The notes beneath the pieces are model-generated. The model had not been told where the DNA came from. It did no database searches and worked only from the letters and a program-made list of their open reading frames with translations. Shown here in pieces: positions 24,402-26,861 of a stretch of DNA of 64,000 bases. The position numbers and the translations under genes are program-made. Position 1 is the first letter of the stretch. Each line of letters begins with the position of its first letter. The DNA comes from Pachysolen tannophilus NRRL Y-2460 (taxonomy: Eukaryota), in NCBI GenBank assembly GCA_001661245.1, contig KV454013.1:776502-840501 (forward strand). Direction: 5' to 3'.

Positions 24402-25661
24402 ATGTCCACAGTTGGAAAAGTAAGTATTATAACTTTTATTTTCAATACTTTAATGGTTATTGTAGTTTATATATGACTAACTGATTTTGTTATAAAAATT
24501 ATAAAAATTTTTATTTTTTTTTCATTTTTTTTTTAGACCATTACTTGTAAAGCTGCTGTTGCTTGGGAAGCAGGTAAAGATTTATCAATTGAAACAATTG
24601 AAGTTGCTCCACCAAAGGCACATGAAGTTCGTATCAAGGTCAATTATACTGGTGTTTGTCATACAGATGCTTATACTTTATCTGGGGTTGATCCAGAAGG
24701 TGCTTTTCCAGCAGTTTTAGGTCATGAAGGTGCAGGAATTGTTGAATCTATTGGTGAAGGTGTTACTAGTGTTAAACCTGGTGATCATGTTATTGCTTTA
24801 TATACTCCAGAATGTAAAGAGTGTAAATTTTGTAAAAGTGGAAAGACAAATTTATGTGGTAAAATTAGAGCAACTCAAGGTAAAGGTGTTATGCCAGATT
24901 GTACTTCAAGATTTAAATGTAAAGGTAAAGATTTATTACATTTTATGGGTTGTTCAACATTTTCTCAATATACTGTTGTTGCTGATATTTCAGTAGTTGC
25001 TGTTGATCCTAAGGCTCCAATGGATAGAACTTGTTTATTAGGATGTGGTATCACTACGGGTTATGGTGCAGCCACCATTACTGCAAATATCCAGCCTGGT
25101 GAAAACATTGCTGTCTTTGGTGCTGGTTGTGTTGGTTTATCAGTTATTCAAGGTGCTCTGGTGAAAAAAGCTGGTAAAATCATTGTTGTTGATACTAATA
25201 ATAAGAAAAAAGAATGGGGTCTTAAATTTGGTGGAACTGATTTTGTTAACCCATTAGAATTACCACAAGGTACTACAATTGTTGATAAATTAATTGAAAT
25301 GACCGATGGTGGTTGTGATTATACTTTTGATTGTACTGGTAATGTTCAAGTCATGAGAAATGCTTTAGAAGCTTGTCATAAAGGATGGGGTACTTCAATT
25401 ATTATTGGTGTTGCCGCTGCAGGTAAAGAAATTTCTACAAGACCGTTCCAATTGGTCACTGGTAGAGTTTGGAAAGGTTGTGCTTTTGGTGGAGTTAAAG
25501 GTAGAACTCAATTACCAGGTCTTGTAGAAGATTACATGAAAGGAGATTTGAAAGTTGATGAATTCATCACTCACAGACATCCATTAGAAGATATAAACCA
25601 TGCTTTCCATGATATGCATGCTGGTGATTGTATCAGAGCAGTTGTTGATTTACAAAAATAA
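24402..25661 (+). CDS. FLD1: Glutathione-dependent formaldehyde dehydrogenase (class III ADH); exons 24402-24419 and 24537-25661, 380 aa
   Basis: Spliced [16 protein letters not shown], then [41 protein letters not shown]. cerevisiae ortholog is SFA1. Confidence 0.97.
24420..24536 (+). other. Spliceosomal intron (117 nt, phase 0) in FLD1
   Basis: 5' GTAAGT, branch point GACTAAC (24475-24481), poly-T tract, first downstream AG at 24535-24536. Removal gives an intact conserved N-terminus. Confidence 0.95.
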
Positions 25662-26861
25662 CTAGCAGTAGCCAGTAAACTATAATATATTTATATAAAT
25701 ATTTATATATGATATTACCATAGTTTATAAGAATCACACACTAATAACTTGTTCTTGTTAACTAGTATGTAGGCACCTTTCCTAGACACCACCATTCAAG
25801 AGATAATCATATATATATATATATATCCTTTACAGTTTATCTTCATCTCTCTTGGTGTCCGGAAACAAGAAGCTCTTCAACGCTAAGCAAAAGAAAAAGC
25901 AAAAAAAAATTCTTTTTAAAGAGTATGTATGACGCGCAGTCTCACAAATATCAGATAGATAATCTCGGAGAAAACGGTCAAAGGGAATCAATAAGAACTC
26001 TGTCATGACAATACAAATCAGTCTGTTTGATCCAAAGCGCTTCTAATAGTATCTTAGTGTTATCTTGATGTTATCTTAGTGGTGTATAGATATCCTAGCA
26101 ACACTGGTAGGTACCCCTGGTGTCTTTTTACATTTTTGCACTTGCCGTTCGTTACGCGTATTGCAGAGAAGATAACTTTTACTTTCTTTTTATTCATTTT
26201 CTTTTGTTTTATATACCACCTCCACCAAACCGTGACCCACTTCCCTGCTTCGCCATGGTGCGCTCTGCTATTCGGACAACTTTCACATGCAATTTTTCTC
26301 TCTTTCCCCCCAAAAATTTTTCATGAAAAAACTAAGCATGTCCGGTTTTTCGCGGGCTCTGTTTTTCAACTATTTTTTTTTTCTTTTAATTTTTTTATCA
26401 ACTATCATTTCTATAACAAAGCCTTCTTTTAACACTTCTGGGTTCTAAATAATAGTTTTAAATTCTATTTTATTTTATTTTAATTTTTTTTTTTTTTTCA
26501 TTTTTTTCATTTTTTTCTTTCTTTCTTTATTTGATTTTGAAGTCGGCTTATCTTGTATTTTTAAGAAAATCGTTTTGGTGTTAAGTGATAACACACGTAT
26601 ACCCATTCACTAATACACTCTTACATATATATATTTATATATATCTATATATATATATATATATAAATATATATATATGTATGTATGTATATATTTATTG
26701 TTAATACTTTTGTACTTACTATGCATACGTTTTGACAAGTTTTGAAGAAATAAATATATTTAATAAAACTTCAAGGATTAGATACCAATAAGTTGACAAG
26801 TAATCGATACAAGACAAAGATTTTTGAAAACTTTTTTTAATTTTTCTTTTTTTTTTTTTCA

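Follow-up and report, generated by a model that had tools for sequence, protein, structure and literature searches.

The gene FLD1/SFA1 of the yeast Pachysolen tannophilus NRRL Y-2460 lies on contig KV454013.1 within the 64,000-nucleotide (nt) stretch analysed here (the window, in whose positions coordinates are given unless a locus is named) and encodes S-(hydroxymethyl)glutathione dehydrogenase, a class III alcohol dehydrogenase (ADH) also called glutathione-dependent formaldehyde dehydrogenase or S-nitrosoglutathione (GSNO) reductase (GSNOR). [quoted passage not shown] We consider it likely that FLD1/SFA1 thereby carries a selected, readthrough-derived cryptic PTS1 that gives rise to a minor peroxisomal isoform of the enzyme. 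Such an isoform had been proposed from the DNA letters of the window (the original prediction), and comparison of 67 distinct orthologous stop regions supports the proposal; readthrough, import and a role inside the organelle are what we infer from it for Pachysolen.

The coding sequence (CDS) ends ...GAT TTA CAA AAA TAA, and its frame continues as CTA GCA GTA GCC AGT AAA CTA TAA, i.e., LAVASKL followed by a second stop, exactly where and as it had been predicted (Table 1). The adenines noted before the stop and the CTA G noted behind it are equally present in the sequence (AAA TAA CTA G). The extension had further been described as less AT-rich than the 3' untranslated region (UTR) that follows, which is true right beside the stop (the extension has 43% GC, against 0% for the 21 nt behind it and 15% for the 60 nt behind it) but not unusual over a longer distance: 53 of 180 21-nt windows within the next 200 nt downstream reach the same 43%, so this contrast carries little weight. 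AlphaFold2 modelling of the read-through form, with the stop read as Gln and the single CTG as Leu (translation table 1), gave a mean predicted local distance difference test (pLDDT) score of 86.9, and the last strand spans residues 367-371; since residues 376-382 lie beyond this strand and have pLDDT values below 50, the model hints that the SKL may sit on an unstructured, free tail. PTS1 calls here and below are matches of the terminal tripeptide.

Behind the stop codons of fungal FLD1/SFA1 genes, PTS1-type tails in the reading frame are strongly over-represented, so the conservation in orthologues on which the original prediction had been staked beforehand is indeed found. With the Fld1 protein as query of a metagenome scan, we collected fungal orthologous loci (the best 80 of 550 relatives, with 59-87% identity) and used a script to follow each of them from the conserved C-terminal motif (G-x-C/S-I/V-R...) to the stop and from there along the in-frame extension to the next stop. 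Three loci lacked the C-terminal motif, and the 77 readable ones comprise the 67 distinct stop regions. A strict PTS1 ([SAC][KRH][LM]) closes the frame 0 extension in 16 of them; a wider PTS1-like set raises the count to 24, with the eight wider-only tails ending in P-[KR]-L (six), EKL (one) or SQL (one). By comparison, frame +1 of the same 67 regions gives no strict and one wide case, frame +2 gives one and two, and of 21,101 random starts in these loci, placed 60-500 nt downstream, 1.1% lead to a strict PTS1 and 3.1% to a wide one. The resulting binomial p is about 3e-17 if loci are taken as independent, and frame 0 differs from the other frames with a Fisher p of 8e-8. Because the loci are related to one another, we also clustered them on coding sequence (85% identity over 150 nt), which leaves 45 clusters, 10 of them with a strict and 14 with a wide case. 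The codon after the stop follows the same pattern: CTA stands there in 12 of the 24 positive regions versus 1 of the 43 negative ones (Fisher p 5e-6).

The composition of these tails suggests that they are under protein-level selection in many ascomycete orthologues. Among the 21 positive tails listed, the final residue is always Leu (spelled by six different codons), the residue before it is basic except for one Gln (eight codons), and position -3 is Ala, Ser or Pro (ten codons). The first stop interchanges between TAA, TGA and TAG (11, 9 and 4 of the 24 positives) and is never replaced by a sense codon, and indels within the largest tail family keep the frame. This family, x-R/H-S-G-P...[KR]-[AP]-[KR]-L, belongs to loci nearest to Epicoccum (Pleosporales-like) and Exophiala (Chaetothyriales-like), where organism labels denote the nearest named protein in a blastp search of the last 200 residues or fewer against 61 named proteins. 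The other families, SQQPVQEAKL, IARSRL, LEGAPKL/LERAKL, LAAKL, LASPKL and LAVE...SQL, can be aligned neither with it nor with each other. All four distinct tails of the five budding-yeast-like loci are of PTS1 type (SQQPVQEAKL, IARSRL, LEGAPKL and LERAKL); these loci are nearest to Scheffersomyces/Priceomyces (L001/L002, 88%), Clavispora (L003, 92%) and Priceomyces (L005, 87%), and the LERAKL locus (L009) is 100% identical over 200 residues to a protein of Metschnikowia pulcherrima. No PTS1-type tail is present in Aureobasidium-like loci or in most of those whose nearest proteins are from Sordariomycetes or Leotiomycetes. Across fungi, the putative hidden PTS1 tail of FLD1/SFA1 is thus widespread but patchy. 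The exact stop-CTA-G arrangement of Pachysolen recurs behind TGA in L005 (TGA CTA GAA), L009 (TGA CTA GAG), L079 (TGA CTA GCC) and L049 (TGA CTA GCA). One contig resembling complementary DNA (L006, with an uninterrupted match of 1128 nt) reads TAA followed by LHSGPQDQSVKARL and shows no difference in this region from L029, a genomic, intron-bearing locus; because the stop and the extension are still there, the mature messenger RNA of this organism retains the stop. In L056 (1769-1830), the extension's second stop leads straight into a run of A with which the contig ends (…CCC AAG TTG TAA AAAAAAAAA), and this contig may come from a transcript that was polyadenylated there.

How leaky the Pachysolen stop might be can be gauged from published readthrough contexts (here and below, papers are cited for what their available passages state). 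The original prediction had held that a stop codon followed by CUA(G) promotes readthrough, and this stands for UGA-CUA(G), which drives readthrough in the systems studied, but not in the same way for UAA, which lowers it when put in place of UGA (PMC4207609; PMC4359377). Pachysolen has the CUA G of the leaky context UGA CUA (G) and an A-rich 5' side, with UAA as the stop instead of UGA. That adenines 5' of a stop favour leakiness in yeast agrees with ribosome profiling of Saccharomyces cerevisiae, in which readthrough is most readily permitted by A at -1 to -3 and by C at +4 (PMC8087045, Table 2). Measured against this optimum, the Pachysolen context is most permissive at -3 to -1 (AAA), +4 (C), +6 (A) and +9 (A), and departs from it at +5 (U) and +8 (C). 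The available passages of another study, Cridge 2018 (PMC5829715), contain nothing on CUA or CUAG.

Several points weigh against a peroxisomal isoform made by readthrough in Pachysolen. The original prediction had itself cautioned that TAA is the least leaky stop, and this holds in model systems (PMC4207609; PMC4359377; PMC8087045): in S. cerevisiae, where UAA is least permissive, genes with UAA-C only reach the overall median of readthrough (PMC8087045), and in Ustilago a change from UGA to UAA reduced readthrough (PMC4207609). Besides the U at +5, no stimulatory RNA structure was found after the stop (25640-25760; z -0.74), which leaves the immediate context to account for any readthrough. 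Codons of the extension are rare in the CDS, with CTA used for none of its 22 Leu codons. In the survey, 43 of the 67 distinct stop regions have no PTS1-type extension, which makes the trait patchy, a distribution also described for other readthrough-PTS1 cases (review PMC9549241), and a directly encoded [SAC][KRH][LMI] end was found in none of the 120 best protein homologues. The yeast-like loci are all Debaryomycetaceae- or Metschnikowiaceae-like; Pachysolen's closest relatives are not among them, and the survey was without the relatives named beforehand, i.e., Peterozyma, Nakazawaea, Ogataea, Komagataella and Candida. Finally, formaldehyde dehydrogenase of Komagataella phaffii, scored as having no PTS1, gave spectral counts of 0 in the peroxisomal fraction and of 578 and 424 in the cytosolic one (PMC4580311), which disfavours a large or universal peroxisomal pool.

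The best-placed alternative builds on some of these same points and takes the Pachysolen tail for a relic of an ancestor with functional readthrough, which with UAA would now yield essentially no extended protein while its SKL has not yet decayed. Beyond the poor permissiveness of UAA and the drop seen in Ustilago, it would suit this explanation that three of the four distinct yeast-like tails come after TGA and that the trait was clearly lost in many lineages (the 43 regions just mentioned). However, SKL, CTA G and AAA are all intact despite a genome of 30% GC and an almost pure A+T 3' flank. Moreover, TAA-CTA prevails in the cluster with the best-conserved extension (L006-L067), where it is the commonest context (9 of 11 loci) and shows UAA to be compatible with the arrangement, and L001 and L002 also have TAA. 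On balance, we regard a mere relic as unlikely.

A second alternative, that seven codons and an SKL came together by accident in the 3' UTR and were never under selection in this lineage, can be compared with the background of the window. We took every in-frame segment after a stop triplet in all six frames as the null set (n=8571): [SAC][KRH][LM] closes 0.2% of these segments, SKL in particular 0.047%, and CTA opens 0.56%, while both CTA and a strict PTS1 are found in a single segment, the FLD1 extension. The combination of stop-CTA and strict PTS1 therefore exceeds chance expectation in the window. Likewise, among the 29 open reading frames (ORFs) of at least 150 residues in the window, only FLD1 has an extension with a strict PTS1 end, just as the original prediction had noticed no second PTS1 among the 3' extensions read there. 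At a rate of 0.2%, the several thousand genes of a genome would by chance include a handful with a strict PTS1 extension, taken by itself. Around 1% of Saccharomyces genes have a PTS1-like motif within 30 bp of the stop when all frames are counted (PMC4526572), and many genes had been looked at before the FLD1 tail was picked, all of which would favour an accident. Yet this accident would have had to strike an enzyme family in which 16 to 24 of 67 orthologous stop regions have the same feature, and to coincide with CTA right after the stop, which makes chance a decidedly improbable explanation.

In the L006-L067 cluster, TAA is followed by CTA in nine cases and by CCA in one, TGA (L011, L048) by GTA and TAG (L057/L058) by CTC; such co-variation of the stop and the +4 position could reflect tuning of the readthrough level, the numbers being small. 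Behind stop-CTA/CCA/GTA-CRC, the nine nucleotides TCG GGC CCC are identical in 12 of 14 loci of the Dothideomycete-/Eurotiomycete-like family (L006, L011, L048, L050, L053, L056, L059, L061, L062, L064, L067 and L015), while the C-terminal codons vary synonymously. This identity goes beyond coding need and points to a constraint on the RNA itself, possibly an element that promotes readthrough, common to Pleosporales-/Chaetothyriales-like fungi. It is also the one argument for reading the whole conserved region as an untranslated 3' UTR element that acts on RNA stability, localisation or polyadenylation. We find this very hard to uphold, since the last three codons vary synonymously around a preserved [ASP]-[KR]-L-stop in frame 0 only, an intron-like insert inside the extension of L027 preserves the frame, and the Pachysolen tail has no such 15-nt element.

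The insert in L027 (1019-1140) interrupts TGA CTA CAC TCG G with GTAAAC...TACTGAC...CTAG, and its excision restores LHSGPTVSPRL-stop; it looks like an intron inside a readthrough extension. In L041 (1805-1900), L042, L043 and L030 (1810-1905), a homologue of the x-S-G-P...SKL tail lies around 50-70 nt past the stop with an intron-like stretch in between. A GTAAGT donor overlaps the TAA of L041, and together with a TTAG acceptor around 50 nt downstream it would join the CDS in frame to ...SLPSRGPSPSKL-stop, suggesting that L041-L043 reach the tail by alternative splicing; an equivalent splice in L030 would recreate TGA CTA CAC and then LHSGPPSSSKL-stop. These apparently spliced loci, with GTAAGT over the stop and an in-frame ...SPSKL-stop, and the +1 frameshifting used by IDP2 of pre-duplication yeasts (PMC4526572) are what could be said for splicing or frameshifting in Pachysolen too, but there the extension keeps to frame 0 and spans just 21 nt, which leaves this the least credible of the alternatives by far. 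Between 25600 and 25685 there is no GTAAGT-like donor and no TACTAAC-like branch site, whereas signals of this kind (GTAAGT, GACTAAC) do occur in the intron of FLD1. A bolder picture, to which we give even weight for and against, would be that a peroxisomal Fld1/GSNOR isoform is old and widespread in Ascomycota and is reached interchangeably by readthrough or by splicing at a stop-overlapping donor, that readthrough in filamentous fungi is driven by the roughly 15-nt element CTA CRC TCG GGC CCC, that UAA-CUA can be a programmed signal, and that one-carbon (C1) detoxification is partly peroxisomal.

Under our preferred reading of a readthrough-derived isoform, most ribosomes would stop at the UAA (25659-25661) and release the 380-residue cytosolic enzyme. 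A few would decode this codon with a near-cognate tRNA, helped by its A-rich 5' side and the CUA G on its 3' side, then add x-LAVASKL and terminate at the next UAA; the amino acids inserted at UAA in S. cerevisiae are Gln, Tyr and Lys (PMC4150775). The free C-terminal SKL would be read by Pex5, the PTS1 receptor. Since the enzyme is dimeric and peroxisomes import folded oligomers, one tagged subunit may carry an untagged partner along, and a minor part of the glutathione-dependent formaldehyde dehydrogenase/GSNO reductase would end up in peroxisomes. Import by Pex5 with piggy-back of untagged subunits is modelled on the mammalian enzyme LDHBx, which does so (PMC4359377).

The enzyme is normally considered cytosolic, as the original prediction had pointed out with the related methylotrophic yeasts in mind, and it is so treated in Komagataella (PMC4580311); schemes of how yeasts metabolise methanol and methylamine likewise place glutathione-dependent formaldehyde oxidation in the cytosol (PMC4580311; PMC8124512). 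Formaldehyde itself is produced inside yeast peroxisomes by methylamine oxidase Amo1, which has a type 2 signal (PTS2), and in methylotrophs by alcohol oxidase; Scheffersomyces stipitis cannot grow on methylated amines without SFA1, and S-formylglutathione hydrolase (Fgh1) of Candida boidinii is cited as residing in both cytosol and peroxisomes (all PMC5816127). The role that we favour for a peroxisomal Fld1 would be the oxidation of S-hydroxymethylglutathione formed from the formaldehyde that peroxisomal oxidases such as methylamine oxidase release, and its product would feed a partly peroxisomal S-formylglutathione hydrolase as in C. boidinii. Alternatively, it could reduce GSNO, given that plant GSNOR is a listed peroxisomal matrix enzyme (PMC5238456), or balance NAD(H). 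If this is true, the whole glutathione cycle would sit where formaldehyde forms and the organelle would need NAD+ regeneration and glutathione inside, and a partly peroxisomal C1 detoxification would explain why Fgh1, which probably has a C-terminal SKL of its own, is present there.

Freitag and colleagues reportedly described readthrough-derived cryptic PTS1 motifs of glycolytic enzymes (Tpi1, Pgk1 and GAPDH) in Ustilago maydis in 2012. Their stop is leaky, as is proposed for FLD1, and they resemble the FLD1 case in the in-frame PTS1 extension, the CUA (often CUA G), the patchy spread across species and the use of alternative splicing by some species to reach the tail, as suggested here for L041-L043 (PMC4207609). 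The difference is that FLD1 encodes a detoxifying class III ADH rather than a glycolytic or redox-shuttle enzyme and has UAA where the defined motif has UGA. The mammalian LDHBx and MDH1x are, like Fld1, NAD-dependent oligomeric dehydrogenases, of which a small share is extended at a stop-CUA-G to expose a PTS1 and whose untagged subunits are imported by piggy-back, but these are animal genes with UGA and measured readthrough (at least 1.6% for LDHB; PMC4359377), whereas readthrough of FLD1 is proposed from its sequence. IDP2 of pre-duplication yeasts is another cytosolic budding-yeast dehydrogenase with a PTS1 hidden in the 3' UTR, reached by +1 frameshifting instead of in-frame readthrough (PMC4526572). 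Fgh1 of C. boidinii (Yurimoto 2003, via PMC5816127) is the next enzyme of the pathway and is reported from both cytosol and peroxisomes, where a peroxisomal Fld1 would supply its substrate on the spot, though this location is ascribed to the mature protein and not to recoding. Plant GSNOR, of the same class III ADH/GSNOR family, is included in a list of peroxisomal matrix enzymes (PMC5238456, Table 1), but the listing concerns plants and comes with no targeting mechanism in the passage of the review.

The mechanism is thus known; its use for this enzyme appears to be novel. Our literature search found no paper that ties formaldehyde dehydrogenase/GSNO reductase to readthrough or a cryptic PTS1; the candidate lists of Freitag 2012, which lay outside this search, might do so. 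As far as they were available, the text and seven supplements of Stiebler 2014 (PMC4207609) contain neither formaldehyde dehydrogenase nor glutathione or alcohol dehydrogenase, the passages of a 2022 review (PMC9549241) do not mention the enzyme, and SFA1 is absent from the text and three supplements of the genome scan by Yanagida 2015, which covered four Saccharomyces species only (PMC4526572). A peroxisomal Fld1 would widen the repertoire of readthrough-derived PTS1 proteins from glycolytic and redox-shuttle enzymes to a detoxifying one, and the orthologous tails suggest a reach beyond the single Pachysolen gene. They would also offer natural UAA-CUA and conserved-element contexts for the study of programmed readthrough in fungi. 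In practical terms, C-terminal tagging of Fld1/Sfa1 would destroy the signal, and a hidden PTS1 of this kind is missed by standard annotation and by PTS1 scans of predicted proteomes.

The identity of the gene itself is clear. Its product matches the TIGR02818 equivalog with 588.5 bits (cut-off 543.95) over residues 4-371 of 374, contains the Pfam domains ADH_N and ADH_zinc_N, matches structures of human and other class III ADHs with E values around 1e-160 (class I ADHs are weaker at around 1e-108), and is 80-88% identical to fungal proteins bearing the same enzyme name, all of which identify it as a bona fide S-(hydroxymethyl)glutathione dehydrogenase/class III ADH (FLD1/SFA1/GSNOR). Exon 2 accounts for 374 residues of the deposited 380-residue protein PACTADRAFT_2402 at a listed identity of 100%, with one differing codon, the sole CTG of FLD1 (25159-25161), which reads Leu under table 1 and Ala in the deposited protein. 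This Ala fits the CUG=Ala code of Pachysolen, and the extension is unaffected by it as Leu is spelled CTA there. Contigs from four public runs (of one sample, possibly the source of the assembly itself) include the intron and are identical to the window over 24315-26200. The A+T stretch that adjoins the second stop is probably a yeast-type polyadenylation element.

Table 1. Features of the FLD1/SFA1 locus and of its stop region (window positions).
Feature	Position	Strand	Basis or remark
FLD1/SFA1 exon 1 (MSTVGK)	24402..24419	+	Translation; equals the N-terminus of the deposited 380-residue protein
FLD1/SFA1 intron (GTAAGT ... GACTAAC ... TAG)	24420..24536	+	Sequence; exon 1 + exon 2 give the deposited protein
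FLD1/SFA1 exon 2, 374 codons, S-(hydroxymethyl)glutathione dehydrogenase/class III ADH	24537..25658	+	Translation, TIGR02818, Pfam, class III ADH structures
Stop-codon context CAA AAA TAA CTA G	25653..25665	+	Sequence; CUA(G) is a fungal/animal readthrough motif
Annotated stop TAA, proposed leaky stop	25659..25661	+	Orthologues have TAA, TAG or TGA at the equivalent place
In-frame extension LAVASKL, seven sense codons, putative PTS1 tripeptide SKL last	25662..25682	+	Translation
Second stop TAA, would put SKL at the extreme C-terminus	25683..25685	+	Sequence
Pure A+T stretch TATATTTATATAAATATTTATATATGA, adjoins second stop	25686..25712	+	Sequence

Three other genes on the plus strand of the window deserve mention. 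Two of them encode candidate peroxisomal proteins with a direct C-terminal signal: a 376-residue ORF at 3460-4590 with an AlaDh_PNT N-terminal domain (saccharopine/alanine dehydrogenase type) has a directly encoded SKL end and is probably an ordinary PTS1 protein, and a 588-residue thiamine-pyrophosphate (TPP) enzyme with three TPP domains at 59903-61669 ends in SPKL, so that PKL would serve as a PTS1 here if the product is a peroxisomal enzyme of the 2-hydroxyacyl-CoA lyase type. The downstream neighbour of FLD1/SFA1 (26862-29498) encodes an 878-residue LicD-family protein with an N-terminal run of Asn and further low-complexity Asn/Lys stretches.

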